42,519 nucleotides of DNA from an uncultured Gammaproteobacteria bacterium (GTDB lineage: Bacteria; Pseudomonadota; Gammaproteobacteria; Chromatiales; Chromatiaceae), in NCBI GenBank assembly GCA_965372385.1, contig CBDVCD010000001.1:1-42519 (forward strand). Reading direction: 5' to 3'. Made by a program: the position numbers and the translations under genes. The notes under the pieces are model-generated. The model was not told where the DNA came from and ran no database searches. It saw only the letters and a program-made list of their open reading frames with translations. Positions 1 to 32,865 of this stretch are shown here, one piece after another (positions within the stretch are counted from its first letter, which is position 1; each line of letters starts with the position of its first letter).

Positions 1-833
1 ATACCCACCACGGAGCTATTGGCAAGCTCCTCCACTCTTCTGGGAGGATACCCCAGTTCCCCATAGGGAATATAGGGGTCCGTAGTGTTGTGGCACTCAT
101 CACAGGCAACAGGCTCTTTACTGAGATTTTTATGAATGATTTCATTCATCTGTGATTTTTGCTGTGTGCTAAGTTTGTTCTCTTCCTCCAGATAACGATC
201 GACGAACTCTTTATTTTCAACCCCATTGATAAAATCAAAAATATTTTCCTCGAACTGGCCAGGAGCAATCTTTGCACCATAGTTGCCATAGGCAGGGTAA
301 TAGGATCTGTCACCTACCGCATGCTTACCTTCAATCTCGACCAGCGAAACTGGATTGACCGTCTGCTGCCCTGTCTTTTTGTCATACCAGCGAAACGAGT
401 ATTTGGACAGCTTGTCTTTAGCCGCAATATGACAGGTTTGACATGCGGTATAGAATGCATGCATGTTTAAAAAACTACGCGTTTCCTTGTCTTTATTATG
501 CGGTATATCGCCATGGCAGATTATGCAGGTACTGGCTCTATCCTCATCCATCTCAAAACCTATGTGATGAAAGCGACCCGCGATATAGGGCTGCTCTATG
601 ACGCGGTAGCCCAAATCGGTTTTTTTGGTTTCTCCTTTATCGGCTAGCAGTTTAATAAAGAGCCTCTCTTCATCAGTACCCGCTTGACCCAGTTCCATCA
701 AGGAGGCCCCCGCCTCTTCCTTACCTTCAAAACCGAATATCAGCGGATACATGAAAACGCCATACCAGACGGTAAAGGCCATCAATAAAATAACATAGGC
801 CTTGAATACCAGAGATTTAAGGGTCTTCACCAT
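1..833 (-). CDS. multihaem c-type cytochrome with N-terminal membrane anchor (partial; 3' end runs off the window)
   Basis: Absent from the ORF track because it has no stop inside the window. My minus-strand translation from ATG 833 gives MVKTLKSLVFKAYVILLMAFTVWYGVF (a TM helix), then the haem motifs CIICH, CQTCH and CDECH. The ATG overlaps the stop of the upstream gene (ATGGTGA, 827-833), suggesting translational coupling. Confidence 0.75.
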   Translation of the reverse strand, partial: MVKTLKSLVFKAYVILLMAFTVWYGVFMYPLIFGFEGKEEAGASLMELGQAGTDEERLFIKLLADKGETKKTDLGYRVIEQPYIAGRFHHIGFEMDEDRASTCIICHGDIPHNKDKETRSFLNMHAFYTACQTCHIAAKDKLSKYSFRWYDKKTGQQTVNPVSLVEIEGKHAVGDRSYYPAYGNYGAKIAPGQFEENIFDFINGVENKEFVDRYLEEENKLSTQQKSQMNEIIHKNLSKEPVACDECHNTTDPYIPYGELGYPPRRVEELANSSVVG

Positions 834-1642
834 TCGTAATTCTCCCCGGCAAAGCTCTGAGGCTTGATTTCGTCTTCTAATCCATTTTCGATCATGACCC
901 GAACATAATCGGCGTAGTGCTCATGCACCATGTCATGTTCATTGAGATAACCCGTTATCCATACTGTCGCCGAAGGAAACTTCTCGGGGGCGTAGTGCAC
1001 ATTGTACCAATGCACAAAAAATAGAAATAACACCGCCAGCAATGCCTCATCGGTGTGCATGATGTAGAACGCATTCAAGGCAAAACCCGGGAGTATTTGT
1101 GAAAACTCATCCCGCCACCACAAGGCAAAACCCGCGGGTCCAAGGATGGGGATACCCCAGTATGGCGCAAAGTAGTCGAACTTTTCCCTCCATGACATCC
1201 GGTCATGTCTTGGCGGACGATTGGTGAAATAGAGCAGATATTTCCAGATCTGCACGATATCTTCCCAATCCTTTTTATTCGGCACCATTTCGAGGGACAA
1301 CAATGCCTTAGTAGCACTACCGACGGTAAGCCTATTTTCTCGCTTTAATTTAACCAGATGCTTAGTGTAAAAAATATAGATCCAATAAAACGTGTGGTAG
1401 AAGAATAACAGCATAAGCACCGTACCCGCGGCCCGATGAATCAATGGCGCGATTTCTGTCCCGCCCATAAAATCATACAGGGGTTTCGCCCAAGCCTCTT
1501 CCGCATGCCTTAAAGGAAACCCTGTCACCGCAAGGAGAATGATCGTGATGAACAGCACCACATGCTGTACCCGCTGGTGCGCGGAAAAGCGATAGAAGAA
1601 ACGCTTTCCAGCCTTATAGATTATGGGTTCGTATGTTCTCAT
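827..1642 (-). CDS. membrane b-type cytochrome (FdnI/HydC-like di-haem cytochrome b family)
   Basis: 271 aa with several hydrophobic helices carrying conserved His (HQRVQHVVLF, LIHRAAG, FFYHTF, FFVHWYNVHY). It sits between two multihaem cytochrome c genes. Confidence 0.65.
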   Translation of the reverse strand: MRTYEPIIYKAGKRFFYRFSAHQRVQHVVLFITIILLAVTGFPLRHAEEAWAKPLYDFMGGTEIAPLIHRAAGTVLMLLFFYHTFYWIYIFYTKHLVKLKRENRLTVGSATKALLSLEMVPNKKDWEDIVQIWKYLLYFTNRPPRHDRMSWREKFDYFAPYWGIPILGPAGFALWWRDEFSQILPGFALNAFYIMHTDEALLAVLFLFFVHWYNVHYAPEKFPSATVWITGYLNEHDMVHEHYADYVRVMIENGLEDEIKPQSFAGENYEW

Positions 1643-1654
1643 TTTATTACCCTT

Positions 1655-2767
1655 TTACCGATCGTCCGAGCGAGATTCTGTCTTTATTTCCCTTATGATT
1701 TCATCGTAGTCATCTACGTGCTTTTCTTTGAAAAATGCAAAGGTTGGGAACAGCCTGCGCATCAACTCCAGGAATATCAGGGCCAGGAAGAAATACAGAA
1801 CAAATGCCATGAGGGCCTTGAAACCTATCAGCATGTAAAACTGCATCGGGTATTTTTCTCTGTCGTAGGTGACATGCGTCTGGAAACTTGCCAGCATGGG
1901 CCCAGCCTGCTCGTGACACTCTGACGTTCTACAAGTGGTTGCTACGTTATTTTCATGCACAGAGGATGTATTGACATCTTTCGCTTCGATTAAGTGGGAG
2001 TTCTCACCCTCTACAATATGGCAATCGATACAGTCCGGCATGCGCTCGGAACCCAATGTGATCAACTTGCCATGGAAGGTTTCTTTATAGGATGTAACAA
2101 CATCATCCAGGTTATGTCTTTCCCTGAAGCCTTTGTCCTGATGGCATTTCGCGCAAACCTCTATGGTCTCCAACGGGAACCGGGTTTTGTGCAGACGAGT
2201 TGTAATGTGCTCATAAAAGTCTTCCGCGAAGGCACCGCTTGTATGACAGCTTTTGCATCGACTGATTGCGCGTTTTGAAACACCCGCAATTTTCTCGCCT
2301 TTGTAGATGGAAAAAGGTCTGTACACGGGTTGGTCGTGACAGCTTTTACAGTCTGGATAATCCTCCTCATGCTCCTTGGGCAAGCCATTTTCATCCAGTC
2401 GACCATGGACACTCTTAGCCAGGGTCTGCGCTACCGCTTTATGGGAAAAGTTGGTTTGTCCTGACGGCTCGACAATATGGCACTCCTGGGTACAATCGAC
2501 CTTTTTCGCGGGCTCATGGGGGATCTGGTCAATGTCGGCATGACAATCCTTGCAGTCGACCCGTCTATGCGGGCCGCTGTTGAACAGCTCCTCATTGATA
2601 TAGAAGAGTCTGAATTGGCCATTTTCATCGATACGGCTCAAGCCTCTGTGTTTATGACAGAGTACGCAGTTCATCTCATCATCTGAGTAGACCGAAGCAG
2701 GCAGGACAAAGAGGAAAATTGCAGTCAACGCAAAAAGAAGATAACTGGTTGCCTGAGGTTTTTTCAT
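1655..2767 (-). CDS. multihaem c-type cytochrome (6 CXXCH plus CX3CH and CX4CH) with signal peptide and C-terminal TM helix
   Basis: Motifs seen: CVLCH, CKDCH, CTQECH, CKSCH, CKSCH, CAKCH, CIDCH, CRTSECH. I prefer ATG 2767 (MKKPQATSYLLFALTAIFLFVLPA) because AGGAAG lies 5 nt upstream; the track start is 2824. The C-terminal hydrophobic segment is YMLIGFKALMAFVLYFFLALIFL. Confidence 0.8.
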   Translation of the reverse strand: MKKPQATSYLLFALTAIFLFVLPASVYSDDEMNCVLCHKHRGLSRIDENGQFRLFYINEELFNSGPHRRVDCKDCHADIDQIPHEPAKKVDCTQECHIVEPSGQTNFSHKAVAQTLAKSVHGRLDENGLPKEHEEDYPDCKSCHDQPVYRPFSIYKGEKIAGVSKRAISRCKSCHTSGAFAEDFYEHITTRLHKTRFPLETIEVCAKCHQDKGFRERHNLDDVVTSYKETFHGKLITLGSERMPDCIDCHIVEGENSHLIEAKDVNTSSVHENNVATTCRTSECHEQAGPMLASFQTHVTYDREKYPMQFYMLIGFKALMAFVLYFFLALIFLELMRRLFPTFAFFKEKHVDDYDEIIREIKTESRSDDR

Positions 2768-3289
2768 TTTTCTTCCTGTGAATCGTGAATAATCCAGTCT
2801 TATCAAACTATGATTATTTGTCATTCATTGGCTATAACGACTTTCATCTGCTCGTAGAATCAAACGTAGCTTAAGTCTACGCATGATTATACAGCCTGCA
2901 CATTAAATCAGGGATGCGATACGCGGTAAGCGTAGAAATAGAGAATGCACGATTCTGTCGATACTGCGACTCAAACTCCAAGCGCAGTAAGTAGATACTG
3001 AATTTCAAAGCGCTCCTCACCCCAAATTTTTATTATTAGGCATCTGCCCACCATCCCGACAAAACCTCATACCATTAGCAGTCAGTCAATGGATACAAGG
3101 CTAGGATTTTCTTTCTTTGCAAGTTTGCATCGTCCAGGCCACATCGTCAACCCAAATTATTTTATTCCTTGGCTGTAAATGTCATTTCAATGGGTTAAGT
3201 CAATTGCAGGTTCACTATATTTTAGACAAACATGAGGATTACGATCCGATACAATACTTTATCAGGATCTGTCATTAATACTTTTGTAC

Positions 3290-3368
3290 TAGTGCTCCGT
3301 CAAGGTTGTATTGATGGCTTCAGCGTTACTGTGGTGTTTCGCAACAAGACAACCTTGCCGGAGTACTA
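3290..3368. repeat. 79-bp hairpin element with 20-bp inverted arms (18/20), overlapping the stop codon of the 3366-3629 gene
   Basis: Left arm tagtgctccgtcaaggttgt (3290-3309), right arm acaaccttgccggagtacta (3349-3368). The first 28 nt recur at 11245-11272 (27/28). Confidence 0.7.
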
Positions 3369-3629
3369 AAACGAACCATAGAGCTCCTCACTGTTTAAAT
3401 TGGTCCAATCCCCTTGTTCAAAATAACCCGGAGAAAATGATTTTTGTCCAAACGGATGGCTGCTATCTCCAATAACGGGTTGTTGTGCGGTTGCGGGCTG
3501 ATAGCCTGAATCGTCTTTCACCTGCTGTTTAACGTCTGAATCCGTTTCGCTCCATACGCCTCCTTTCCAATCTGCATACGCACTACCAGCGAAAAACAGT
3601 AAAACCACGATAGTCAGTACCTTTTTCAT
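3366..3629 (-). CDS. small secreted hypothetical protein
   Basis: ATG 3629 is preceded by AAGAGGA. The signal peptide is MKKVLTIVVLLFFAGSAYA. No recognisable family. Confidence 0.5.
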   Translation of the reverse strand: MKKVLTIVVLLFFAGSAYADWKGGVWSETDSDVKQQVKDDSGYQPATAQQPVIGDSSHPFGQKSFSPGYFEQGDWTNLNSEELYGSF

Positions 3630-3730
3630 GATCGTCATCCTCTTGGTATAGAAATTAAGAAGGCAGATTTTTCTCCACCTTTCCATCACTAATACGCATC
3701 ACGGTGACTATTGGTTTCACCCATGATGGA

Positions 3731-4840
3731 TCACTCATAGCCCGCCATCTCCAGATAACCCCGTCCCAGTACCGCTCCATTCACCTCGTCGCTGACCTCA
3801 ACCGCACCCTCCCAGTAGCGCACGCTGAGATGCATCTCCTGATCGGCAAGCAGGGCTCGAATGCGCCAGGGATGGGCTTCATCCTGCAGCCGAAGCTGCC
3901 ACTCGATGGGATAGCGTCTTGCATCAGACCCCCAATATTTCAACGGGGTAAGCGTGACAAGACTGGAATCTAAATGTATCCGCACACCCTCACTGTCACT
4001 TACGGAACCGGCACTGTGGGAGTCTGTGGCGCCATCTTTGCGCCGCAGTTGGTAGTACATCAGATTGCGCCCATCCTGCAAATGCAAAGAAAACCAGTCC
4101 CAGCCTGTCTGATCGGGGCCAAGAACGCTGGTGCTCCACTCCCGGTCGAACCAGGCCAGACCGCTGACTGGCAGGCTCTCGCCCTGGATCTTCAGGCGGC
4201 CATGAGCCCGTAGACGTGGGATCGAGTAGTAGTAAGAGGCGTTACCGGACTCTGCGCTTTTCTGGCTCAGCCCTGCGTTGCCCTGGAGGATGATGGGGCT
4301 GATCGGAGCAAGTTCAAGGGTCAGATCGAAGCCCTCGGCGGGTAGCCGCAGTCGCCAGTTTTGTTCTCCTTCATCTTCCCACAACTGCCAATCCTCCAGC
4401 CAGACCTTGAAGGGCAGGGCGGTTGCGCCCGCCAGCCCAATACCCTGACGGGCGAAGCGTTCATCGGCCAGGTGTTGACCCGCGGAAAGATCGCTGAGGG
4501 CGGCATGGGCCATCCAGATCTGATGGGTGCGCCAAGCGGATGGACTGTCGATGGACTCCGGCTGCAGGGCAATGCGGAAGAAGGTGACCTGGAAGCCGAA
4601 GGCACGCCCATCTTCGCCCCGCAGATTGCCGGTGATATACCACCACTCGTTGCGGTAGGCCGGATGGGGGCCGTGGTCCTGGGGAAAACTGAAGGGGCGC
4701 ACTTGTGTGGCGCGGGCGAAGCCCTCCAGATCACCATCGCCCAGGGCATCGGTCACCTGGAACTCATCGGGCTCTGGCATGGGCTGGCCGCAGCCAATCA
4801 GCAGCAGGATGAGCAGGAGTAGTGGAGACCAGTGCATCAT
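3731..4840 (-). CDS. AttH/CrtC-like (hydroxyneurosporene-synthase fold) lipoprotein, partner of the FtsX ABC transporter
   Basis: Lipobox LLLIGC, and the motif DHGPHPAYRNEWWYITGNL...FGFQVTFFR typical of AttH-like proteins. Same strand, directly downstream of the permease and ATPase. Confidence 0.7.
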   Translation of the reverse strand: MMHWSPLLLLILLLIGCGQPMPEPDEFQVTDALGDGDLEGFARATQVRPFSFPQDHGPHPAYRNEWWYITGNLRGEDGRAFGFQVTFFRIALQPESIDSPSAWRTHQIWMAHAALSDLSAGQHLADERFARQGIGLAGATALPFKVWLEDWQLWEDEGEQNWRLRLPAEGFDLTLELAPISPIILQGNAGLSQKSAESGNASYYYSIPRLRAHGRLKIQGESLPVSGLAWFDREWSTSVLGPDQTGWDWFSLHLQDGRNLMYYQLRRKDGATDSHSAGSVSDSEGVRIHLDSSLVTLTPLKYWGSDARRYPIEWQLRLQDEAHPWRIRALLADQEMHLSVRYWEGAVEVSDEVNGAVLGRGYLEMAGYE

Positions 4841-11958: not shown

Positions 11959-12882
11959 ATGAATCTCCGAGATCTCAAATACATCATCGCGGTTGCCGAT
12001 ACCCAACATTTCGGCCATGCGGCGGAACGCTGTTTTGTCAGCCAGCCAACCCTGAGCGGCCAGATCAAGAAGCTTGAGCATGAGTTGGGCGTAACGCTTT
12101 TTGAGCGGACCAAACGCTCCGTTGAAGTGACACCCATCGGCGAAGCGATCATCTCCCATGCACGCCAGGTGATGGAACAGGCGGATGCCATCCAGCAGCT
12201 GGCCAGGGCCCAGCAGGATCCGCTTTACGGCCCTTTGCGCATCGGTGCCATACCCACCCTGAGCCCCTATCTGATCATGCTGATCCTGATCCCCCTGAAA
12301 ACCCAGTATCCTCAGCTGAAACTGGTGCTAACGGAGGAGATCACCGAGACCCTGCTGCGGCGTCTGCGCAATTACGAAATCGACGCGGCCCTGGTGGGTA
12401 CCGCGGTAGATGAAGCTGATCTGATCTCGAGGCCCTTGTTCGACGAGCCATTCTGGCTTGCCCATCCCCGTTCCCATCCACTCTATTACAAGGACGAGAT
12501 CACCCGGAATGACCTGAAGGATGTGGATGTCCTGCTGCTGGCTGATGGACACTGCCTGGCGGATCAGACCATGCAGATCTTCGGTCTGACAGATCGATCC
12601 GTGCAGAGTGAGATGGGTGACCTACGGGCCTCCAGTCTCGAGACCCTCTTGCAACTGGTGGGGGCAGGTTTCGGCTGCACCCTGGTGCCGGCGCTGGCGA
12701 TTCGTGGACCCTGGATGACCGACAGCGGGGTGATTGCCCGCAAGCTGGAGATACCGGAGGCCTTCCGGTGTATCTCGCTGATCTATCGCAAAACCTTTCC
12801 GCGTCCTCAGGTACTGGATGCCTTTGCGGAGATAGTCACCGGCAACCTACCGAATACCGTACATCCCTACAAGCAGAATTAG
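11959..12882 (+). CDS. oxyR: LysR-family peroxide sensor OxyR
   Basis: Collinear with E. coli OxyR: MNLRDLKYIIAVA..., FVSQPTLSGQIKKLEHELGV, LFDEPF, ADGHCL, SLETLLQLVGAG. Confidence 0.85.
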   Translation: MNLRDLKYIIAVADTQHFGHAAERCFVSQPTLSGQIKKLEHELGVTLFERTKRSVEVTPIGEAIISHARQVMEQADAIQQLARAQQDPLYGPLRIGAIPTLSPYLIMLILIPLKTQYPQLKLVLTEEITETLLRRLRNYEIDAALVGTAVDEADLISRPLFDEPFWLAHPRSHPLYYKDEITRNDLKDVDVLLLADGHCLADQTMQIFGLTDRSVQSEMGDLRASSLETLLQLVGAGFGCTLVPALAIRGPWMTDSGVIARKLEIPEAFRCISLIYRKTFPRPQVLDAFAEIVTGNLPNTVHPYKQN

Positions 12883-13110
12883 TCAGGCAGCTTTCCAGAA
12901 GCTGTTCTGAGAACCAGAACAACGCCAATAATAATTCTTTGGGGGTAGTCAACTAGCGCCTCCAGCCACGAGATATTGTGATGTGCAATTATCGATTAGC
13001 AATATAGGCACAACATGTAGGCCGAGGAGGTGCTAATTAACCACCCCTCTAATTCTTTAACCTTGGGAAGATACAATAAGGGATGTATACCTGCCATGGA
13101 GCCTGCCGTG

Positions 13111-13489
13111 AAGCTGCCCTCGAATAAGACCAAGGGGGACAAGCTCTTTCTGAATGATGGTCTGATTTCACTCAAGGTCGAACAGATTCAGGATAACGAA
13201 GTGCATTGCCAGGTACGCGCTGGAGGGGAGCTGCTGTCACGCAAGGGACTCAATCTGCCGGGTATCGATCTGGGTTTCAGTGCCTTTACCGAGGCAGTTT
13301 TCCTACGGCGTGCACCCGGTCCAGGTGCAGGAGGAGTTTCTGGACTGGGGCCCCTTCTGCTGCAAGTGGCTGCATGACCAGGGATTCGAGAGCGGTGCCG
13401 CCGTACTTACCCAGGGCCCCTCACCGGAAAATCCCTACGCGAGCCACAGCATGGCGATCGCCAATCTGGCCTGTCGAGTGTCGCCTTGA
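13111..13489 (+). pseudogene. pyruvate kinase remnant (B-domain piece joined to the C-terminal ~65 aa; catalytic core deleted)
   Basis: Frame 1 reads GDKLFLNDGLISLKVEQIQDNEVHCQVRAGGELLSRKGLNLPGIDLGFSAFTE. Frame 2 reads from ~13286: LPRQFSYGVHPVQV...GFESGAAVLTQGPSP...SMAIANL. There is no N-terminus and no A-domain. Confidence 0.55.
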
Positions 13490-13524: not shown

Positions 13525-14526
13525 TCAGTTCGCCGTGGTTATCTTCCTGGTGACGGTCAGCATGATCAGGGTGGCAAGCACGGCAGACATCAGGCACCAG
13601 ATGCAGACGGCGTGTATGACAAACAGCTCAAGGCCGGTCAGGTAGATGGAAAACATGAGACCGAAGATACTGAGGACCAACAGGCCAAGGGTTGAGCGCA
13701 GGCGCCAGCTGCCGGCCAGCAGCCGCTGCAGGAGCCATAGCCCCAAGATTCCCAGGTAAAACACCATGCCCCAGATGGCCATGGGAATACCGAACAGCTT
13801 GGAGTGGGGACTGGCATGAACCCTCATGCAGTCACCGATCGGACCGCACATGGCTTCACTGTGCGTCAGTGACACCGAAGTCAGATAGATCCCAATACCC
13901 AGGCCAAGCAGGGCGAATAGGGGCAGGCCCCAGGAGCTGACCGATGGTGCATTCGACAAGCGACTGTCGTTATACGCCAAGCGCCAGGCCCCATGCATCA
14001 GGGAGAATAACATGGCGACCATCACGCTCCAGGCGAGCCAGCTCGCTATACTGTCGTTTCCCGCCGTTGTCTCCGCCGTGTCGTCCGTCTCCTCCCCGTC
14101 AATCAGCATCTGTAGTCCGGGCACGTCCGGCCAAGCGAAACCTTTGGCAGGCACTTCACCTTCGATGAGCGACGGCAGGCCCTCGGTAATTTCACTCTTT
14201 CCCCTCAGCAACTGCTTACCCACCAGAACCGAGGGGCGATTCAAGGACTCGGTTCCGATCCCAAAATAGTCCAACACCTCTTGGAAAATTTTATCGCCGG
14301 GCGACTCGGAAATATCCACCGGATAGAGTTCCAATCTCTCCGCATGCATCGCGCTCAGCGGAACTAGAAATTCATCGATGACCTCTGGACACTCCTCACA
14401 GAAAGGGGGATAAAACAATATGGCCCTTATGCTTGCTGAATCCTGCGCCATCGCCTCAGCCAGAGGTAAGGCCATGAGCAACAGATGGAGTAAAAAGTAA
14501 ACGCTTTTTCTTTTTAGTGGCGCCAT
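13525..14526 (-). CDS. VKOR-family thiol oxidoreductase fused to an N-terminal periplasmic thioredoxin-like domain
   Basis: Signal peptide, then a Trx-like CEEC motif (FYPPFCEECPEV). VKOR hallmarks: loop cysteines CGPIGDC, SKLFGIP, and CIWC in the last TM. Confidence 0.7.
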   Translation of the reverse strand: MAPLKRKSVYFLLHLLLMALPLAEAMAQDSASIRAILFYPPFCEECPEVIDEFLVPLSAMHAERLELYPVDISESPGDKIFQEVLDYFGIGTESLNRPSVLVGKQLLRGKSEITEGLPSLIEGEVPAKGFAWPDVPGLQMLIDGEETDDTAETTAGNDSIASWLAWSVMVAMLFSLMHGAWRLAYNDSRLSNAPSVSSWGLPLFALLGLGIGIYLTSVSLTHSEAMCGPIGDCMRVHASPHSKLFGIPMAIWGMVFYLGILGLWLLQRLLAGSWRLRSTLGLLVLSIFGLMFSIYLTGLELFVIHAVCIWCLMSAVLATLIMLTVTRKITTAN

Positions 14527-14650
14527 TTCGAATACCGGATAATTTCGTAATAAAGTCTGGGTCTGATCGCATCAGCTCCCAGTAAAAACTTAACATCAAT
14601 AATGATTTCTTTCGACGGTGAAAGTTCGCTGTAGATCCGACAAGGTGGAG

Positions 14651-14690
14651 AAAAAAACAAAACCCACTTCAGGCGGGCCTGAAGTGGGTT
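14651..14690 (-). terminator. Rho-independent terminator of the rubrerythrin-DUF3501 operon
   Basis: Perfect 13-bp stem aacccacttcagg/cctgaagtgggtt with loop cggg. On the minus strand it is followed by TTTTGTTTTTTT. Confidence 0.8.
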
Positions 14691-14723
14691 TATGCGAAAG
14701 TCCTTTTCAGCCTTGCCAGGCGG

Positions 14724-15308
14724 TTATTGAAGATCCTGCAGCAGTGAGATACGCACGGAGGGATCCAGCTCGGATACTGTGTGGTTGTATACCGGATGAT
14801 CTATACCCATGGCGAGTCCTGCCCCACCCTGCAGCGCATCGACCATCTCCTGATTGAGCTCAAAACGCATGAAGTGAACCGCCGAGGTCTTGTCCTCGGT
14901 TTCCCGCTCCAGATCCTCGTTGGCGATAGGACGGACCTTGTCAAAACCCTCGACCTGCACCCAGACCGCCTTGTCGATGCCGATCATTCTGGCCAGGGCC
15001 GCCTTGCGCTCTTCCTCGTCGGCGAATTCGACCATGAAGGTGGCCTTCCAGTTCAATCCGTCCGGGATCAGCGGATTGTAAACATCCAACTCATCCTGGA
15101 TACCTTCGGGTTCGAAGATGCGTTCGATGCGCAGCATCTCCTGCACCTGGTACTGCATGGTCAGAGCATCCTCGAAATAGAGTGCCGCATTGGGTCCGAT
15201 GGGGACGCGGCGGCTCTTTTTGTGCTGCATCACCCGGGCACGGAACTCCGGGCGGATGCGGGCATATTCTTCCAGGCCATAGAGATCTGTATGTGACAAC
15301 TGGCTCAT
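14724..15308 (-). CDS. DUF3501 family protein
   Basis: 194 aa. Pattern YARIRPEFRARVMQHKKSRRVPIGPNAALYFED...MLRIERIF...TSAVHFMRFEL, as I recall for DUF3501. It usually neighbours rubrerythrin and CCG-domain proteins. Confidence 0.65.
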   Translation of the reverse strand: MSQLSHTDLYGLEEYARIRPEFRARVMQHKKSRRVPIGPNAALYFEDALTMQYQVQEMLRIERIFEPEGIQDELDVYNPLIPDGLNWKATFMVEFADEEERKAALARMIGIDKAVWVQVEGFDKVRPIANEDLERETEDKTSAVHFMRFELNQEMVDALQGGAGLAMGIDHPVYNHTVSELDPSVRISLLQDLQ

Positions 15309-15323
15309 TGGTTACTTCTCCCG

Positions 15324-15611
15324 TCACTCGTGGGCAATCGATTTGTCGGTAAACAGGTAATCCTTCAGCTCCTTGTCAAAGCTGGGGTCCTGGCGGCGGA
15401 TCCACTCCAGCAGCATGGATGCGTGTTCTTTTTCCTCGTCCCGGTTATGCGCCAGGATGGCACCCAGTTCCGGGTCGGCGCAAGCGTCCACCCGCTGGTT
15501 GTACCAGTCTACCGCCTCCAACTCTTCCATCAGCGAGACGATGGCCCGGTGCATGTCACGGGTCTCTGCACTCAGTTGTTCTACGGGTTCGTGATAGCCT
15601 TCATTTGCCAT
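15324..15611 (-). CDS. EncFtn-like (encapsulated-ferritin family) ferritin-like protein lacking a C-terminal targeting peptide
   Basis: HEPVEQLSAETRDMHRAIVSLMEELEAVDWYNQRVDACADPELGAILAHNRDEEKEHASMLLEWIRR is nearly collinear with the R. rubrum EncFtn core as I remember it. The protein ends ...LFTDKSIAHE. Confidence 0.7.
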   Translation of the reverse strand: MANEGYHEPVEQLSAETRDMHRAIVSLMEELEAVDWYNQRVDACADPELGAILAHNRDEEKEHASMLLEWIRRQDPSFDKELKDYLFTDKSIAHE

Positions 15612-15629
15612 TTTTTAACTCCTAAGTCT

Positions 15630-16973
15630 TCAGATACCGTACGCCTTGCGCAGCATGCTGATAGGGTGTTCCGGTTCACGACCGTCTTGCAGGCCGCTTT
15701 CGATATGATGGCCGGCCATGGGGCAGTCGCTGCCATAGTGGTCGGCCTGTAGCTGCTTGACCTTGTTCACCACCGGGCGGCCGATCTTCATGGCGTATTC
15801 ATGGAATTCGCTCTTCACCGCATAGGTGCCGTCATGGCCTGAGCAACGTTCAATGATCTCGACCTGGGTATCGGGTATCAGCGAGAGCATCTCCTTGGTC
15901 TTCTGGCCGATGTTCTGCACCCGCTGGTGACAGGCGGCGTGGTAGGCAACCTTGCCCAGGCCCTGTTTGAAATCGGTCTTCAGCTTGCCGTGCTTGTTGC
16001 GAATTATCAGGTATTCGAAGATATCGAAAATTGCCTCCGCGACCTTTTTTACCTGCGCATCATCAGGGAACATCAGTGGCAGTTCCTGTTTGAACATCAG
16101 GGCACAGGAAGGTACCGGGGCGACGATGTCCCAACCCTCGTCCACCAGCTTGGCGAGCACCGGGATGTTGGCGTCCTTGGCCTTCTCCACGGCCTCCAGG
16201 TTGCCCAGTTCCAGTTTCGGCATGCCGCAGCACTGCTCTTTCTCGGCGATGGTCACCGGGATCTCGTTGTGCTCGAACACCGCCACCAGGTCCTCGCCCA
16301 CATGGGGTTCGTTATGGTTGCCATAGCAGGTGGCGAACAGAGCGACCTTGCCTTGCGTTTTCCCCGCGGGATCTCCCTCGGCCTGGATGCTGCGATGATC
16401 GGCCAGGCGGCTACGCAGGGACTTGCTGTGAAACTCCGGCAGTTTGGCCTCTGGGTGGACACCCAGGCCCTGATCCAGGATCTCACGAAAATTCTTTGCC
16501 TTGTTGAGGGCATTGACCACTCCGGAAACCACCGGGATACCCGCCAGCTTACCCAGGTTGTCGGTACTGGTGAGGATGCGATCACGCAGTTTCACGTCAC
16601 CCTTCTGGTACTTGACCGCCTTGGCGCGCAGCATCAGATGGGGAAAGTCGATATTCCACTCATGGGGTGGCGTATAGGGACACTTGGTCATGAAGCAGAG
16701 GTCACACAGATAGCAGTGATCGACCACCTGCCAGTAATCCTGCTTGGCAACTCCATCGACCTCGAAGGTATCCGACTCATCCACCAGGTCGAACAGGGTG
16801 GGAAAACTCTGACACAGACTGACACAACGACGGCAGCCGTGGCACAGGTCGAAGACCCGTTCCAGCTCGGTGAACAGGCTCTCTTCGTTGTAATAATCCG
16901 GGCTTTTCCAGTCGATAGGGTGCCGTGTGGGAGCATCCAGGTTGCCTTCACGCTGGCCTGTGGGTCCTGCCAT
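15630..16973 (-). CDS. (Fe-S)-binding CCG-domain oxidoreductase (HdrD/GlpC-like)
   Basis: Two ferredoxin-type clusters (CHGCRRCVSLC, CYLCDLCFMTKC) and C-terminal Cys-rich CCG-type motifs (EQCCGMP, ERCSGHDG). I prefer ATG 16973 (GAAGAGG upstream) over the track's TTG 16994. Confidence 0.8.
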   Translation of the reverse strand: MAGPTGQREGNLDAPTRHPIDWKSPDYYNEESLFTELERVFDLCHGCRRCVSLCQSFPTLFDLVDESDTFEVDGVAKQDYWQVVDHCYLCDLCFMTKCPYTPPHEWNIDFPHLMLRAKAVKYQKGDVKLRDRILTSTDNLGKLAGIPVVSGVVNALNKAKNFREILDQGLGVHPEAKLPEFHSKSLRSRLADHRSIQAEGDPAGKTQGKVALFATCYGNHNEPHVGEDLVAVFEHNEIPVTIAEKEQCCGMPKLELGNLEAVEKAKDANIPVLAKLVDEGWDIVAPVPSCALMFKQELPLMFPDDAQVKKVAEAIFDIFEYLIIRNKHGKLKTDFKQGLGKVAYHAACHQRVQNIGQKTKEMLSLIPDTQVEIIERCSGHDGTYAVKSEFHEYAMKIGRPVVNKVKQLQADHYGSDCPMAGHHIESGLQDGREPEHPISMLRKAYGI

Positions 16974-17002
16974 GACGAATACCTCTTCAATCAAATAGGT
17001 AT

Positions 17003-17022
17003 GGGCGGCCCGTGGGCCGCCC
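17003..17022 (-). promoter_or_regulatory. GC-rich intercistronic hairpin between the rubrerythrin and Fe-S protein genes
   Basis: gggcggccc-gt-gggccgccc. This could be a partial terminator or an mRNA-stabilising element. Confidence 0.4.
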
Positions 17023-17032
17023 GGAGAAGGAT

Positions 17033-17449
17033 TTATTCCATCTCGTCCAGCGCTCTCTGGTAACGGTTGGCGTGAGAACGCTCGGCCTTGGCCAGGGTCT
17101 CGAACCAGTCGGCCACTTCGTCGAAGCCTTCGTCACGAGCGGTCTTGGCCATACCCGGGTACATGTCGGTGTACTCGTGGGTTTCACCCGCCACAGCAGA
17201 CTTTAGGTTATCGGCGGTGCCGCCAAAGGGCATGCCGGTTGCGGGATCGCCGCACTGCTCCAGGTACTCAAGGTGGCCGTGGGCATGGCCGGTCTCGCCT
17301 TCAGCGGTGGAACGGAACAGGGCTGAAATGTCGTTGTAGCCTTCCACGTCGGCCTTGCCGGCGAAGTAGAGATAACGGCGGTTGGCCTGGGATTCTCCGG
17401 CAAAAGCGTCTTTCAGGTTTTGCTCGGTGTTGCTGCCTTTGAGTTCCAT
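17033..17449 (-). CDS. rubrerythrin-family di-iron protein without a rubredoxin domain (erythrin-like)
   Basis: Two E...ExxH sets (GESQANRRY / [10 protein letters not shown]; AGETHEY / [11 protein letters not shown]). No CxxC pairs. ATG 17449 has GGAG upstream; the track start 17464 is TTG. Confidence 0.85.
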
Positions 17450-17642
17450 AAGGTGGTTCTCCAATAAATTAATGTGGTTATAGCAAGATGGTTGCGCAGG
17501 GATAGTGAGCCCTCCGTGCTTACAAGGATAGCCCTAATCACTTTGAGTACATAATGGTAGTTTCGATGGCACTGATAGCCAGCACCTATTAATCATTTAT
17601 CCAAAAAAAGCGGCCACCCGCCATAGGAAAATCCAAAAACCG

Positions 17643-18013
17643 TTTACCTTCCAGTGGCTGCTGGGCGATAAAAACGCCCTCACGGCTGAAGAGCTGGCCG
17701 GTTATGAGCTGTTTAAAAGCAGTGGTTGTGTAGCCTGTCACAACGGCCCTGCCGCGGGTGGCAACTCGTTCCAGAAGATGGGGGTGATAGAACCCTATCA
17801 GACCAAGAGTGGCGCGGAAGGCCTGGTCGCCGTCACCGGTAAGGATGCCGATCGGTTCAAATTCAAGGTGCCGACCCTGCGGAATGTAGAGATGAGGAAA
17901 ATGCACAGGTGGTCGCTTTCCTCAAGACCTTAACGGGCGACCAGCCGGCATTTATTCTGCCGCTCCTGCCACCGTCAACCGACAAAACACCGCAACCGAA
18001 ACCATTCGATTAA
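17643..18013 (+). pseudogene. di-haem cytochrome c peroxidase (CcpA/MauG family) C-terminal remnant with an internal deletion and frame change
   Basis: My translation in frame 0: FQWLLGDKNALTAEELAGYELFKSSGCVACHNGPAAGGNSFQKMGV...DRFKFKVPTLRNVE. From 17894 in frame 2: EENAQVVAFLKTLTGDQPAFILP...*. The N-terminal haem domain and the PYFHDG segment are absent. Confidence 0.65.
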
Positions 18014-18114: not shown

Positions 18115-19584
18115 TTAGCCGATTGCCGCGTAGTGCCAATCCTCTGGCTTGAGCCCCTTTGCCCGGGCTGCTGCGAGCAGTCTCTCAAGCCAATCGTCAG
18201 GGCCTGCCAAATAGACTTCCACCAGAGGCACGCCTGCAATGGCGGCGGCCAGAATATCCGCCAGTTCTTCGCTGCTGCACCTCGTTGGTGTGGCTGAGTA
18301 GACGAAGTTGTCCAGTGAGTCGTTCCAGGCGCGACAGAGGTTGTCCAGTGAGGAACCGGGTGGATTGCCACCTACCTGGATCAGTTGCAGCCCCTCGGCG
18401 TTATCGATAGTGATCGCTTGCTCCACCAGGCTCTTGATGGGCGCAAACCCCTCTCCTTTGGCCAGAAAAAGTGCCGGAGCGGTGGAGTCTTCCTGTAATA
18501 CGAAACCGCCCATAGGTCCTTCAATCAAGACCGTCTGTTTGGCCATGGCGCCATCGAAAACCGCCTTGCTGAACTCGTCATCAGAGCTGCGGTCAACGAT
18601 GAACTGGAGGTTTCGACCATCGCAAGGGCAACTGGCGATGAAAAGCTCGCCAACACTGCCGTTCTCGGCGGTGAGCCTTACCTGCTGTCCCGCCTTGAAG
18701 CGCAGTGAGTGGGTCCGTGGTGTCTGGACATTCAGCAGGGCCAATTCCTCACCCATCTGTTCGATCTTGCGCACATTGGTGCGGATCTGCTGATAGGGCA
18801 AAGCCTCCTCCATACCTGCTTCGGTGGCTTCGATCACCAAGTCGGAGATGGCGGTGTTGGAACAGGCGAGGATATAGCCCTCCTCCTGCTCCCTGGCGCT
18901 TATCACATAGTCATGATCCCGCAGCTTACGCACGGCGCCGGAGACCACCTTACATTTACAGGAGCCACAGTTGCCGCTGGTGCAGCCATAGTCAAGATAG
19001 AGGCCGGCCTTGAGGCCAGCATCCAGGATCGAGTCATTACCCTCGAGAAAAAATTCATGGCCACTGGGCAGCAGACGCACACTGGCGGTGACGATCTTCA
19101 GCATCGCATCCTTGGCGAACAGTGCCGCGCGGGCATCATCGGCCCGCTCCACCCGCTGCATTGCCTTCTCCAGTTGTGCGATGCAATGGGCAACCTCACT
19201 GCGCAGCTTCTCCTCCGGTGCATCCACCGAGGCGTTCAGACTGTCCAGGGTCTCCTGCAGCAGCCCATCCGAGGCGTTGAGTGCGGACTTGGTCTGTACC
19301 AGGGTGTGCTGAAACCCCCTCAGGCGGCTCATCAATACTTCAGGATCGGGCATCCAACCGTCACTGTAGTGGGTCTTGGGCTTGGCCTCCGTCCTAATTC
19401 GTTGCACCCGCTCCAGCACCGGGTCGGCCTCCATATCGATATGCGGATAGAGTTCCAACAGTACCTCAATCGAGACACTGCCCTCGAAGGTCTTGGCGTC
19501 ATCCTCGCGAATGCGTTTTTGTAGATCTCCACGACTGACGCCGGCCAGGCGGGCAGCACGGGAGAGAGAGAGTAATTGCGGCAT
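18115..19584 (-). CDS. fusion protein: N-terminal MerR/excisionase-like HTH + helical linker + plant-type [2Fe-2S] ferredoxin + FNR-like reductase domain
   Basis: HTH LSLSRAARLAGVSRGDLQKRI. Ferredoxin motif CTSGNCGSCKC...ILAC. FNR-like EGPMGGF and AKGEGFAPIKS. ATG 19584 is preferred over the track start 19680. Confidence 0.7.
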   Translation of the reverse strand: MPQLLSLSRAARLAGVSRGDLQKRIREDDAKTFEGSVSIEVLLELYPHIDMEADPVLERVQRIRTEAKPKTHYSDGWMPDPEVLMSRLRGFQHTLVQTKSALNASDGLLQETLDSLNASVDAPEEKLRSEVAHCIAQLEKAMQRVERADDARAALFAKDAMLKIVTASVRLLPSGHEFFLEGNDSILDAGLKAGLYLDYGCTSGNCGSCKCKVVSGAVRKLRDHDYVISAREQEEGYILACSNTAISDLVIEATEAGMEEALPYQQIRTNVRKIEQMGEELALLNVQTPRTHSLRFKAGQQVRLTAENGSVGELFIASCPCDGRNLQFIVDRSSDDEFSKAVFDGAMAKQTVLIEGPMGGFVLQEDSTAPALFLAKGEGFAPIKSLVEQAITIDNAEGLQLIQVGGNPPGSSLDNLCRAWNDSLDNFVYSATPTRCSSEELADILAAAIAGVPLVEVYLAGPDDWLERLLAAARAKGLKPEDWHYAAIG

Positions 19585-19694
19585 TGGAGCTCTTCCCTTG
19601 TCGGTCTGATTTTTGATATAGCTTGAACGCTTACCCTTGAGTTGGCAACCAGCTGACCAAGGCCAGTACCCCAACAACATTGGTTTGATGGGTA

Positions 19695-20988: not shown

Positions 20989-21003
20989 TGAGGGGTACAC
21001 GCT

Positions 21004-21246
21004 ATGCCCGCGTTAACCATAAAAAACATCCCTGACGACCTATACCATGAACTAAAACATGTTGCAGAACAACATCATAGAAGTATTAATAATGAAGTCA
21101 TCATGTGCCTTAAACGCTCTCTTCTGCCTAAAAAGGTATCTCCCGAGGACAGATTAAACGACATTCGCGCTCTTCGGGCACAGATTGCCCCTAATTCCAT
21201 TACTGAAGAAGATATTGAACAAGCCATTAATGACGGCAGACCATGA
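21004..21246 (+). CDS. vapB: VapB-type antitoxin (ribbon-helix-helix, Arc/FitA-like)
   Basis: MPALTIKNIPDDLYHELKHVAEQHHRSINNEV. It overlaps the PIN gene by 4 nt. Confidence 0.75.
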   Translation: MPALTIKNIPDDLYHELKHVAEQHHRSINNEVIMCLKRSLLPKKVSPEDRLNDIRALRAQIAPNSITEEDIEQAINDGRP

Positions 21247-21663
21247 TCGTTGCTGATACAAACATCATTTCATATCTTCTTCTACCCACTTCCTATTCAG
21301 AGTCAGCCGATGCAGCGTACAAACTTGATTCCGATTGGGCAGCTCCACTGCTCTGGAAAAGTGAATTCCGAAATGTTTTAGCGCTATACCTCAGGAGGAA
21401 AATCATTAATCTTGAAAAAGCATTTCAACTTCAAGAAATCGCTGAATCAATCATGACTCAGAACGAATTTGATGTTTCCTCTTATCAAGTGCTTGCGTTA
21501 ATCAATGAGAGTCAATGCTCCTCGTTACGATTGCGAATTTATCGCCCTTGCTCACCACCTCAACACTCCACTTGTTACACAAGATAAAAAGATTTTAAAA
21601 GAATTTCCATCTACGGCGATAACGGTCGCTTACTTTATATCCAGTTACGCGAGCAAGCCCTAA
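21243..21663 (+). pseudogene. vapC: VapC PIN-domain toxin, frameshifted near 21513-21525
   Basis: The N-terminus MIVADTNIISYLL is in frame 0. The conserved C-terminus YDCEFIALAHHLNTPLVTQDKKILKEFP... is readable only in frame +1 and ends at 21661-21663. Confidence 0.7.
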
Positions 21664-21814
21664 CGATCGATGAATATCTGCTTATCCTTGAACAGTTCGG
21701 CATGGGCATGAGTATGGCATTGAAAGACTAAAAGGAGTAGTTGGACCGGCTTACCCCAAAGGTACTTCCTGCGGGGCGCAGAGGGAGCCATATTGTGCCG
21801 ATTTGAGAAGTTAC

Positions 21815-21855
21815 GACTTCAGCTCAGCGTAATCATGAACGGCAGGTCAGCCGCG
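21815..21855 (+). repeat. 41-bp direct repeat, copy 2
   Basis: See 20753-20793. Confidence 0.7.
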
Positions 21856-21926
21856 AAACCAACCATTCAGTTGATTGGTTGGAAAGGAATAAGTAAGAAA
21901 AAGTTAGGTAAAAAGAAGAGGGTATA

Positions 21927-21947
21927 ATATACTACATTGTAGTATAT
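21927..21947 (+). promoter_or_regulatory. candidate parDE operator overlapping a TATAAT -10 box
   Basis: atatactaca-t-tgtagtatat has perfect 10-bp arms. TATAAT is at 21923-21928, and the parD ATG is 27 nt downstream. Confidence 0.5.
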
Positions 21948-21973
21948 CTTCATCTAATTCTTGGAGAACAAAT

Positions 21974-22240
21974 ATGCCAATGGTCAAAAAAAGCATATCG
22001 GTGACTGATCAACAAGACAGTTGGATAAAGGCACAGATTGAAACCGGACATTACGGCAACGAGAGCGAAGTTATCCGAGAGTTAATCCGAGAGCGTCAAA
22101 TTCGAGAGCAAGAAACCCCCGCCGAAATTGAAGCGATCCGCGCCGCGTTGATTGAAGGCGAGAAGAACGGTTTTAGTGATAGCTCTGTAGACGAGATATG
22201 GGAAGAAGCCAGAAAACGCCACAGGGCGAAACATGCCTGA
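21974..22240 (+). CDS. parD: ParD-type antitoxin (RHH, COG3609)
   Basis: KKSISVTDQQDSWIKAQIETGHYGNESEVIRELIR. Confidence 0.8.
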   Translation: MPMVKKSISVTDQQDSWIKAQIETGHYGNESEVIRELIRERQIREQETPAEIEAIRAALIEGEKNGFSDSSVDEIWEEARKRHRAKHA

Positions 22241-22532
22241 TTATCGGCTTGCTGAAAGTGCCAAAGAGGATTTGGTAGTGATTGCACAATATGGCGATGA
22301 GCATTTTGGCGTGGCACAGTCAGACCGATACCGCGACCAGCTCAAGCAACGATTTTCCGTGTTGGCAGACCAGCCAATGCTTTACCCCGCCGTTGAGCAT
22401 ATCCGCGCCGGATACAGGCGTAGCGTGTGCGGGGTGCATTCGATTTATTACCGGATTGAAGGCGAGAGCGTGGAAATCATACGCATTCTGAAACACCAAG
22501 ACGCGACAAAATCCCTATACTCCAGCAGCTAA
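22233..22532 (+). CDS. parE: ParE-family toxin (apparently intact)
   Basis: 99 aa with an 8-nt overlap with parD. YRLAESAKEDL...YRRSVCGVHSIYYRIEGESVEIIRILKHQD. Confidence 0.8.
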   Translation: MPDYRLAESAKEDLVVIAQYGDEHFGVAQSDRYRDQLKQRFSVLADQPMLYPAVEHIRAGYRRSVCGVHSIYYRIEGESVEIIRILKHQDATKSLYSSS

Positions 22533-23158
22533 CGGTAGAGTAAAGATGTGGCGTGGTGGCCTAAGGTGACATTTGAATGGATTAATGGCTGGCAATTCAA
22601 GCAATACTTTTCCGAATTCTGTCTGTTGTACCAAATAAAACTGTTAGTTTGAAACTGTACATAGAGGCGCTTATGTATAGCTATACATAAATATCTGTAG
22701 CTGACCCTCCAGGATCTTGTTCAGAAGACAGGGATCGACCCACCTGAGACAGTTAGGCTAAGAGCGATGAGGGTCTAGCTTTGTAGCATGAATGAGTACA
22801 TTTGGGACAGTCCTTTCGAACCAGTAACTGGATGATGGTTATCAATCGTTTTGAGGCAACTGTCAATACGCCAGGACCAGCGCTCTGTGACAGCTCGATG
22901 CTTAAACTGCTTTTCGGGGATTTAACCCGATGGTCAGGCGCTATTTCTTAGTCATCAGTGCCCATGTACCTTTTCTTGCAGCCATATATTTATCAGAGAT
23001 TGGTAAGGTACATCACGAGCATGAGCCGCAATCTTCGCAAGCGATGGTGCTGGGAGCCTATGTCAACAATAGTGTCTTTCATTGTGCGCATGATAAAAGT
23101 CTTGGCACTGTGTTCTCCTGGAGCGCAAGAGACGGAGGTGGTCGGCAGGAGTGATTGG

Positions 23159-31884: not shown

Positions 31885-32339
31885 TAGTCGACCCGACACT
31901 GTGCAAAAAAATCATCCAGCCCCACCTCTTCCGCATAGGCCTTGAGTACCTTGGGACGAGGGCCCTTATCCTTCACTTCAAATACAGTATCGGGTTCGCT
32001 GGGAACATGAGTATATTTTCCAGCCGGGATCTTGACCGTGGTTTTCGCTCTTGCCGCTTTACGACGACGCTTCACCGACACCTTCTTTTTTGCGGGCGCT
32101 TTTTCCGGTTGCTCCCTTTTTGCTTCTTCTTTATCAATCTTGGTGACGATTCTGCGAATCGTTTTATAGTTGAAACGAACAAATGTTTCGAATGAGAGTC
32201 CTGCCTCCTCCAAAACCTGCGTGATATGCTGATGGGCTCCCTCTAGCGCTTCCCGCTCTTTAGTCTCTTTCTCCTGTTGCTGTTCCAACTTCTCAATTTT
32301 CGCTCGCAGAGCTTCAATTTCTTTTTGCGTATTAGCCAT
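31884..32339 (-). CDS. coiled-coil, lysine-rich small protein (possible nucleoid-associated/H-NS-like; family not recognised)
   Basis: N-terminal heptad-like EIEALRAKIEKLEQQQEKE and a central basic tract KKKVSVKRRRKAARAK. It borders an AT-rich 0.5-kb spacer. Confidence 0.5.
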   Translation of the reverse strand: MANTQKEIEALRAKIEKLEQQQEKETKEREALEGAHQHITQVLEEAGLSFETFVRFNYKTIRRIVTKIDKEEAKREQPEKAPAKKKVSVKRRRKAARAKTTVKIPAGKYTHVPSEPDTVFEVKDKGPRPKVLKAYAEEVGLDDFFAQCRVD

Positions 32340-32480
32340 AATTGTTTAACTTATTTAACCTGTTATTCGGAGCAATTAATTTTAAATTGTTTTTAAGGTA
32401 GTTAACAATACTTTTATGTATCGGTTTAAATGCCAGAATCCATCAACTATTTATTACATAGTCATTGATATCTATTCAAC

Positions 32481-32540
32481 CTAGAATCTGCGGTTGGACG
32501 GGGTAGAGTGTAGAATGGAACGGTCAACTGCAGAATCTAG
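32481..32540. mobile_element. 60-bp minimal copy of family A element (essentially two TIRs back to back)
   Basis: ctagaatctgcggttggacggggtagagtg|tagaatggaacggtcaactgcagaatctag. This equals the 4842-4963 copy minus its 62-bp interior. Flanked by attcaac and gttcaac. Confidence 0.7.
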
Positions 32541-32865
32541 GTTCAACAGTTAAGGAAATAGATAATCGCAACATCTGTTCCCTTGTTCAGATAAAGCTAC
32601 AAATAGAATGAGTGATTACAAAGTGAGAAATTTGGCGAGATTGAGATCAGGCTTGCTGGGCTCATAATAGCAAGAATCTATCAGCGAGATGAACAGTCGA
32701 GTCAAAATTCCGTCGCAATACCAATAATCACATAACATACTGAATAACCTGCCTATAATATTCCACACTGTAAAGATAAACCGATCAACTCAGGAAGGTG
32801 ATTCCGCGACCCTGCAATAGATTTATGTTAGCCTGAAATTAAACTTCCACTCAGGGGGAATCCTG

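Follow-up and report, generated by a model that had tools for sequence, protein, structure and literature searches.

A rubredoxin-less rubrerythrin operon with a fourth, EncFtn-like gene and a candidate OxyR box in an uncultured gammaproteobacterium

The "aerobic-type" lineage of rubrerythrins (RBR) was defined by Cardenas, Quatrini and Holmes in 2016 (PMC5114695). Its members co-localise and co-occur with a DUF3501 protein and with an Fe-S oxidoreductase of COG0247, given the name RFO. The complete RBR, RFO and DUF3501 triple was counted in 185 genomes and the RBR and DUF3501 pair alone in 25; DUF3501-RFO fusions are known from Nitrosomonas, the Thermoproteales have RBR and DUF3501 without RFO, and the RFO gene of Hydrogenobacter thermophilus lies apart from the others (PMC5114695). 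The same study proposed that RFO substitutes for the lost rubredoxin relay. Gray et al. described the three-component system in 2020 as mitochondria-targeted in several protist lineages (PMC7050145), and a 2025 preprint on the rubrerythrin of B. pseudomallei (BpRbr) made the same operon observation and put forward the same electron-partner hypothesis (PMC12154734). Here we compare these systems with a locus in a 42,519-nucleotide stretch of DNA from an uncultured gammaproteobacterium of the Chromatiaceae (contig CBDVCD010000001.1, positions 1-42,519, called the window below), in which four genes encode RBR, RFO, a small EncFtn-like protein of the s-FLP class and a DUF3501 protein. In our view it is rather likely that these genes form a copy of the aerobic-type system which is controlled by OxyR and to which a free mini-ferritin has been added.

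The four open reading frames lie on the minus strand and tile positions 14724-17449 end to end. The operon and its signals are, in the direction of transcription:

17553-17589, no strand assigned: candidate OxyR-type box, consensus match with 3 mismatches
17033-17449, minus strand: RBR, aerobic-type (rubredoxin-less) rubrerythrin, 138 aa; Pfam PF02915, 2e-29
17003-17022, minus strand: GC hairpin in the RBR-RFO spacer, 8-bp stem and 4-nt loop
15630-16973, minus strand: RFO, GlpC/HdrD-like CCG Fe-S protein, 447 aa; PF02754, 2.5e-15
15324-15611, minus strand: s-FLP (EncFtn-like), 95 aa; PF22277, 2.4e-45
14724-15308, minus strand: DUF3501 protein, 194 aa; PF12007, 2e-72
14650-14691, minus strand: intrinsic terminator at the operon end, 14-pair stem at 14660-14691, then a T-run

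The spacers along the operon, read from the sequence, measure 59, 18 and 15 nt. We placed the start of RFO at the ATG at 16973, which is preceded by a GAAGAGG ribosome-binding site, while the TTG at 16994 given as the start in the list of open reading frames is probably not the true one. On identical metagenome contigs, gene calls made independently again gave products of 138, 447, 95 and 194 aa. The terminator folds with -35.1 kcal/mol (z = -4.2 against shuffled sequence). Profile matches, spacers and folds thereby bear out a preliminary description of this DNA in its domain calls for all four proteins, its operon layout and both of its stem structures, the terminator and the hairpin.

That description had also regarded the module as one without a defined function as a whole. 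This is wrong for RBR, RFO and DUF3501, which form a named, published system; both the triple and the donor hypothesis are already in print. In gene content, the window shows the marks of the aerobic-type system, namely a rubrerythrin that lacks the rubredoxin domain and groups with sulerythrin, ferriperoxin and BpRbr, a co-localised DUF3501 gene and a co-localised RFO with a CCG domain. The three families, the order RBR>RFO>DUF3501, the rubredoxin-less RBR and the idea of RFO as a relay are all shared with the system of PMC5114695. Different is the fourth gene, s-FLP, which is inserted between RFO and DUF3501; the figure legend of 2016 mentions, for some clusters, just a 'HYP' gene that carries no name (PMC5114695). 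Judged by homology, the core is the already described system, and the mechanism that we propose for it is the published one. What we add to it is modestly new: the four-gene variant with s-FLP, the alternation of s-FLP with Dps, the enrichment of an OxyR box and a conserved hairpin inside the operon.

For the comparison with relatives we used the 80 loci nearest to the DUF3501 of the window, the best 80 of more than 583 DUF3501 loci. Their DUF3501 proteins are 64-87% identical to that of the window, and the hosts are sulfur and iron oxidisers among the Gamma- and Betaproteobacteria; by this protein, Sedimenticolaceae and Candidatus Thiodiazotropha stand nearest among the named relatives. RBR was present in 74/80 and RFO in 77/80 loci, the exceptions being mostly short contigs. 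We found the order RBR>RFO>DUF3501 in 50 loci, RBR>RFO>EncFtn>DUF3501 in 21 and RBR>RFO>DUF3501>EncFtn in 3, and most loci that lack the full order are cut by contig ends. Because the order RBR>RFO>(EncFtn)>DUF3501 recurs in essentially all contigs of this set that are long enough, the operon is not a product of chance. The RFO genes of the 77 related loci are 54-93% identical to that of the window (median 74%). The co-occurrence across genomes that the preliminary description had proposed to check is thus in print already (185 genomes, PMC5114695) and is reproduced here in 80 loci. From these data we conclude that the operon is real and comprises four genes, with a constant core of three and with s-FLP and Dps as optional additions. 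The same four-gene operon is found in cultured Sedimenticola species (loci L018, L058 and L060), which makes genetic tests feasible.

A search with the OxyR consensus ATAG-N7-CTAT-N7-ATAG-N7-CTAT, with three mismatches allowed, gave a single match in the window, where 0.07 were expected. This putative OxyR site at 17553-17589 precedes the start codon of RBR by 104-140 bp and falls in the region between RBR and a divergent peroxidase remnant. Of 64 related loci searched over the 300 bp upstream of RBR, 31 have such a box; the remaining sequence of these loci gives 0.0012 per 300 bp as background, which makes the enrichment about 400-fold. A LysR/OxyR-type gene adjoins the operon in 37/80 loci, and the flanks furthermore hold genes for cytochrome c peroxidase (CCP; 14 loci), Tpx/Redoxin (8-10), Fe/Mn superoxide dismutase (SOD; 6-7) and Fur-family proteins (5). 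The link to peroxide suspected earlier is supported by the box upstream of RBR and by the OxyR, CCP, Tpx, SOD and Dps genes that flank the relatives. The OxyR homologue of the window itself (11959-12882, plus strand) keeps the sensing cysteine (GHC, the equivalent of C199) and reaches 252 bits with the NCBIfam OxyR model, the cut-off of which is 329.

The second signal is the hairpin at 17003-17022, GGGCGGCC-CACG-GGCCGCCC, in the spacer between RBR and RFO, which folds with -26.8 kcal/mol (z = -3.05). A hairpin of -15 kcal/mol or lower (median -22.5) is present in this spacer in 71 of 71 loci even where the sequences vary, compared with 16 of 71 shuffled spacers. It is probably a partial terminator or an mRNA stabiliser that raises the amount of RBR over that of the products encoded downstream.

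For RBR, the NCBIfam rubrerythrin model NF045767 gave 138.6 bits, with a cut-off of 200, and covered only model positions 3-145 of 194. Since the match ends at 145/194 and stays below the cut-off, we conclude that the rubredoxin domain is absent. All seven di-iron ligands can be read from the sequence (E19, E52, H55, E89, E92, E123 and H126). In the PDB, the protein matches BpRbr (4DI0/9ONM, 3e-75) and sulerythrin (1J30, 1.6e-51). By homology, RBR would be a domain-swapped di-iron peroxidase of the sulerythrin, ferriperoxin and BpRbr type. Ferriperoxin from H. thermophilus is a proven peroxidase and required for aerobic growth (PMC3317640), and BpRbr is induced by oxidative stress (PMC12154734). 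With these three proteins the RBR of the window shares the subfamily and the seven ligands. Its activity is deduced from such homologues, and the donor of ferriperoxin is different, as it is NADPH with ferredoxin:NADPH reductase (FNR) and not RFO. The classical rubrerythrin of D. vulgaris (PDB 1RYT) shares the di-iron four-helix bundle and presumably also the peroxidase chemistry, but it carries the C-terminal rubredoxin (FeCys4) domain that is missing here.

How a rubrerythrin without this domain is supplied with electrons is the question on which the published proposal turns, and RFO is here the best hypothesis for an electron feeder. The protein contains 15 cysteines, each 100% conserved in 72 orthologues. 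Eight of them form two CxxCxxCxxxC(P) 4Fe-4S motifs, four belong to a CCG domain (C216, C248, C249 and C290), and three (C348, C377 and C417) to a second, CCG-like domain that is degenerate, with 'CSG' in place of 'CCG'. The HdrD motif consists of two full CCG motifs, C-Xn-CC-Xn-C-X2-C, with ten cysteines in all. The best NCBIfam match of RFO is GlpC (2e-71), with 240.9 bits against a cut-off of 278; another GlpC model gave 166.2 bits against 279.9. GlpC is thought to be quinone-linked. With GlpC, HdrD and DsrK, RFO has the two 4Fe-4S motifs followed by CCG domains in common, but it stays below the cut-offs for GlpC, carries CSG in the second motif and is not accompanied by glpAB, hdrE or dsrM. 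We found no glpA or glpB partner in the operon and no conserved HdrE-like (cytochrome b) neighbour beside it, so that RFO is assigned neither to GlpC nor to the HdrD type. A sequence search of the PDB returned no relative of RFO. In none of the four operon proteins is there a hydrophobic stretch sufficient to span the membrane, and without a conserved membrane partner either, the suggestion in the preliminary description that the system is membrane-driven is left without support.

The DUF3501 protein contains no cysteine at all. In the PDB it matches 3FJV (6.8e-56), an unpublished structural-genomics structure from B. pseudomallei and the one structure of the family. When an AF2 model (pLDDT 77.7) was used for a fold search, it matched only 3FJV and gave no functional clue. 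Across diverse members of the family we found no conserved metal or redox motif; 13 scattered residues are at least 90% conserved, none of them a cysteine. DUF3501 is an orphan fold and probably serves as an adaptor subunit. This role is the simplest one given the RFO-DUF3501 fusions on the one hand and the RBR and DUF3501 pairs without RFO on the other.

A different division of labour is conceivable, in which an NAD(P)H-dependent flavoprotein or ferredoxin reduces RBR, while RFO and DUF3501 take care of assembly, metallation or repair of the di-iron site or reduce another substrate, for example a disulfide that forms under peroxide stress. Such an arrangement would agree with ferriperoxin, which runs on NADPH and FNR in vitro (PMC3317640), with the RBR and DUF3501 pairs of the Thermoproteales and the unlinked RFO gene of H. 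thermophilus (PMC5114695), with the promiscuous metal binding of BpRbr (PMC12154734) and with an FNR-like reductase gene (18115-19680) directly upstream of the operon in the window and in its closest relative. This reductase, however, neighbours the operon in just 1/80 loci, DUF3501 shows no conserved metal-binding motif, and RFO, with its 15 invariant cysteines, is nearly confined to this type of rubrerythrin (185 genomes, PMC5114695). We therefore regard this explanation as unlikely and RFO as the better candidate for the donor.

The fourth gene was termed EncFtn-like in the preliminary description. The family match stands, as s-FLP also exceeds the cut-off of TIGR04535 ('encapsulin-associated ferritin-like protein') with 138 against 125 bits, but the EncFtn label is misleading, since a targeting peptide is missing and no encapsulin is encoded nearby. 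Its best PDB match is 3K6C (7.5e-48), the 95-aa protein NE0167 of Nitrosomonas europaea, with about 81% identity over all 95 residues. The structure 3K6C is decameric and unpublished, and it was used in solving the first EncFtn structure. A 2024 review describes the s-FLP class as short, without targeting peptide and with the C-terminus LFTD(E/N)KPIAHE, and lists its encapsulin partner as unknown (PMC11202242); the protein of the window ends at residue 95 with LFTDKSIAHE. The residues that align with the ferroxidase centre of EncFtn (E30, E60 and H63, opposite E32, E62 and H65 of Rru_A0973) and with its entry site (E29, E32, W36 and Y37) are at least 98% conserved. The protein thus shares the family and the aligned ferroxidase-centre residues with EncFtn (Rru_A0973, PDB 5DA5) and with NE0167. 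It differs from the former by the absence of a targeting peptide and of a nearby encapsulin, and from the latter, which stands alone, by its place inside a rubrerythrin operon.

Would s-FLP nevertheless be the cargo of an encapsulin, targeted by its C-terminal LFTD(K)xIAHE to a shell encoded elsewhere, its place in the operon reflecting only co-regulation? The score above the TIGR04535 cut-off is in line with this, and the review considers that the short conserved C-terminus is possibly an unrecognised targeting peptide (PMC11202242). But s-FLP ends directly after its structured domain and has no targeting peptide on a disordered tail, where known targeting peptides sit (tails of 10-40 aa, PMC11202242). 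Additionally, no encapsulin was found among the open reading frames of at least 180 aa in the 42.5-kb window or adjoining s-FLP, and around the 71 stand-alone s-FLP genes in the sample described next no neighbour is conserved, neither a shell gene nor any other. We consider a cargo role very improbable and continue to treat s-FLP as a free ferritin.

This sample consists of the 80 closest s-FLP loci, which are 81-93% identical and stem from several phyla. The 95-aa protein is unusually conserved: identities of 80-93% extend over metagenome-assembled genomes (L081-L160 and L165-L236) that are labelled Gamma-, Beta-, Alpha- and Zetaproteobacteria, Acidobacteria, Cyanobacteria, Actinobacteria and Planctomycetes. 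In N. europaea (L165) the start of s-FLP overlaps the end of a 1064-aa open reading frame, and NE0167 shows no operon link within about 6 kb upstream and 2 kb downstream. Two ideas were rejected. The s-FLP class is not specific to rubrerythrin operons, given that 71/80 loci have no DUF3501, RFO or RBR nearby, and the operon-embedded proteins neither form a separate clade nor have diagnostic residues, their identity being 84% between the groups and 85-87% within them, with only V/I/T differences.

Among the 80 DUF3501 loci, s-FLP occurs in 26, mostly between RFO and DUF3501 and in 3 after DUF3501; the two positions imply more than one insertion event. In 13/80 other loci, DUF3501 is followed on its strand by a Dps-like ferritin gene, and in 10 of these 13 the distance to the DUF3501 match is about 130 bp or less. 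Not one of the 80 loci contains both (Fisher p = 0.0035, with the kinship of the loci ignored). Because the two alternate in this way, the operon seems to take up often one small scavenger of the ferritin superfamily, either Dps or s-FLP. RBR-RFO-DUF3501 operons with Dps have been noted before, on a Blastocatellia scaffold and, together with OxyR, in Sideroxydans lithotrophicus (PMC7852563). There, too, an iron scavenger of the ferritin superfamily is added to the core and OxyR is linked to it; the difference is that Dps is a dodecameric cage, whereas s-FLP should by homology be an open decamer. We infer that s-FLP may take the role of Dps in the operon and that the two may be interchangeable as iron scavengers.

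With two ferritin-superfamily proteins in one operon, one could also think of oxygen or iron handling, either through a quinol- or thiol-driven di-iron oxidase that resembles alternative oxidase or through ferroxidase activity and iron storage, with RBR and s-FLP both oxidising Fe2+ and RFO mobilising the iron. The nearest named relative of RFO is GlpC, with its supposed quinone link, Fur-family genes adjoin in 5 loci, and Dps replaces s-FLP in others. According to a proposal in a review of encapsulated ferritins, moreover, the iron is released by electron carriers not yet identified (PMC11202242). The box, however, is of the OxyR and not of the Fur type, scavengers of peroxide and superoxide surround the operon, and s-FLP and Dps are optional, while RBR, RFO and DUF3501 are constant. 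An unencapsulated decamer of the EncFtn type would lack a closed shell for the mineral, in contrast to ferritins and to encapsulin-EncFtn systems (PMC11202242), and the activities measured for this type of rubrerythrin are peroxidase- or catalase-like (PMC3317640; for sulerythrin as cited in PMC12154734). In our view oxygen or iron handling is quite improbable as the purpose of the operon.

Our preferred scheme is therefore a peroxide-responsive one. H2O2 would oxidise OxyR, and the oxidised OxyR would activate the operon at 17553-17589, where the box is identified in silico and its binding is presumed. RBR would reduce H2O2 at its di-iron site, a reaction demonstrated in homologues. The soluble RFO, for which we predict two [4Fe-4S] clusters of the ferredoxin type and a third cluster in the CCG domain, would re-reduce RBR after each turnover and would itself draw electrons from a general donor, a quinol or a thiol/dithiol. 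DUF3501 may dock RFO to RBR, which we propose because it has no cysteine or redox motif, is fused to RFO in Nitrosomonas and is paired with RBR in the Thermoproteales. The hairpin 3' of RBR would keep RBR in excess over RFO and DUF3501. Finally, the s-FLP decamer, unencapsulated, would remove free Fe2+ with its ferroxidase centres and so limit Fenton chemistry. A stronger version, in which s-FLP is a never-encapsulated EncFtn decamer, a Dps-equivalent ferroxidase of peroxide stress and a true fourth component of the rubrerythrin machinery that perhaps shares RFO as its reductant or feeds or repairs the di-iron site of RBR, is a tentative possibility. If it were true, H2O2 reduction and Fe2+ removal would be coupled in one OxyR-controlled unit.

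Several observations weigh against the proposed scheme. The roles of RFO, DUF3501 and s-FLP are assigned by inference, and the sole measured donor of an aerobic-type rubrerythrin is NADPH with ferredoxin:NADPH reductase (PMC3317640). The two CCG domains of RFO hold 7 cysteines compared with the 10 of two full motifs, and because the second domain is degenerate, HdrD-like chemistry is not guaranteed. No membrane-anchor, quinone-binding or thiol-carrier gene that could point to the donor of RFO is conserved beside the operon among the 80 loci. A scan of 13-20 kb for sigma-70 promoters gave no site. In the alignment with the OxyR proteins of P. aeruginosa and C. glutamicum, the OxyR homologue of the window has Phe at the resolving position C208 and no cysteine nearby; it may perhaps be a one-cysteine OxyR. 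As for s-FLP, it is optional (26/80 operons), 71 of its 80 closest loci stand alone and just 9 are near DUF3501, RFO or RBR, and an OxyR-type box was found at 0/71 of the stand-alone genes. Being optional here and mostly stand-alone elsewhere, s-FLP could be linked to RBR merely by convenient co-regulation. The 80 DUF3501 loci, lastly, are close relatives and phylogenetically non-independent.

The aerobic-type rubrerythrin system is widespread, as the DUF3501 family counts 2,556 cluster representatives at 50% identity (some 2,500 clusters) and the system extends to protist mitochondria (PMC7050145). The locus leaves this overall picture unchanged but sharpens the experiments, because it offers a defined OxyR-type box and a hairpin that predicts an unequal stoichiometry of the subunits. 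For the s-FLP class, the operon gives a first genomic hint on its function, suggesting that it can replace Dps in peroxide defence.

The surroundings of the operon contain the neighbours that had been named at the outset, oxyR (11959-12882), a VKOR gene (13525-14526) and the remnant of a cytochrome c peroxidase gene (17652-18010). VKOR had been listed as a neighbour; it accompanies the operon in only 1/80 loci (L001, the closest relative). As conserved partners, VKOR and the Fer2/FNR reductase were both discarded, each being syntenic in L001 alone. In L001, VKOR and oxyR sit 3.7 kb further from the operon. The VKOR protein (minus strand) shows a signal-like segment at its N-terminus and, before the VKOR domain, a CEEC (CxxC) motif, and by its sequence it looks like a fused thiol-oxidoreductase/VKOR. 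Its start codon is uncertain, with 333 aa in the open reading frame and 316 aa in the gene call on identical contigs.

The reductase encoded at 18115-19680 (minus strand) has 521 aa, with 2Fe-2S ferredoxin and FNR-like FAD/NAD domains after an unassigned N-terminus of about 200 aa. It is noteworthy because ferriperoxin is reduced by FNR, with the synteny limited to L001 (1/80). The peroxidase gene at 17652-18010 (plus strand) is a decayed di-haem cytochrome c peroxidase, which has lost its 5' part and about 30 internal codons by deletion and changes frame, so that residues ~219-299 and 330-369 of a 369-aa protein survive. At the same divergent position, the gene is intact in L001. A pyruvate kinase fragment lies at about 13030-13300 (plus strand) between oxyR and VKOR, called as 89 aa with PF00224 on identical contigs. 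The remnants of pyruvate kinase and peroxidase within 5 kb suggest local gene decay or rearrangement. In 6 loci (including L016), a metallo-beta-lactamase-fold protein of about 232 aa is encoded on the same strand about 1 kb upstream of RBR. Finally, the GC content is 41-47% at 1-4000, 21000-23000 and 32000-33000 of the window, compared with 60-66% at 4-8 kb (ABC transporter/FtsX), and these sharp shifts suggest that parts of the window are of mosaic origin.

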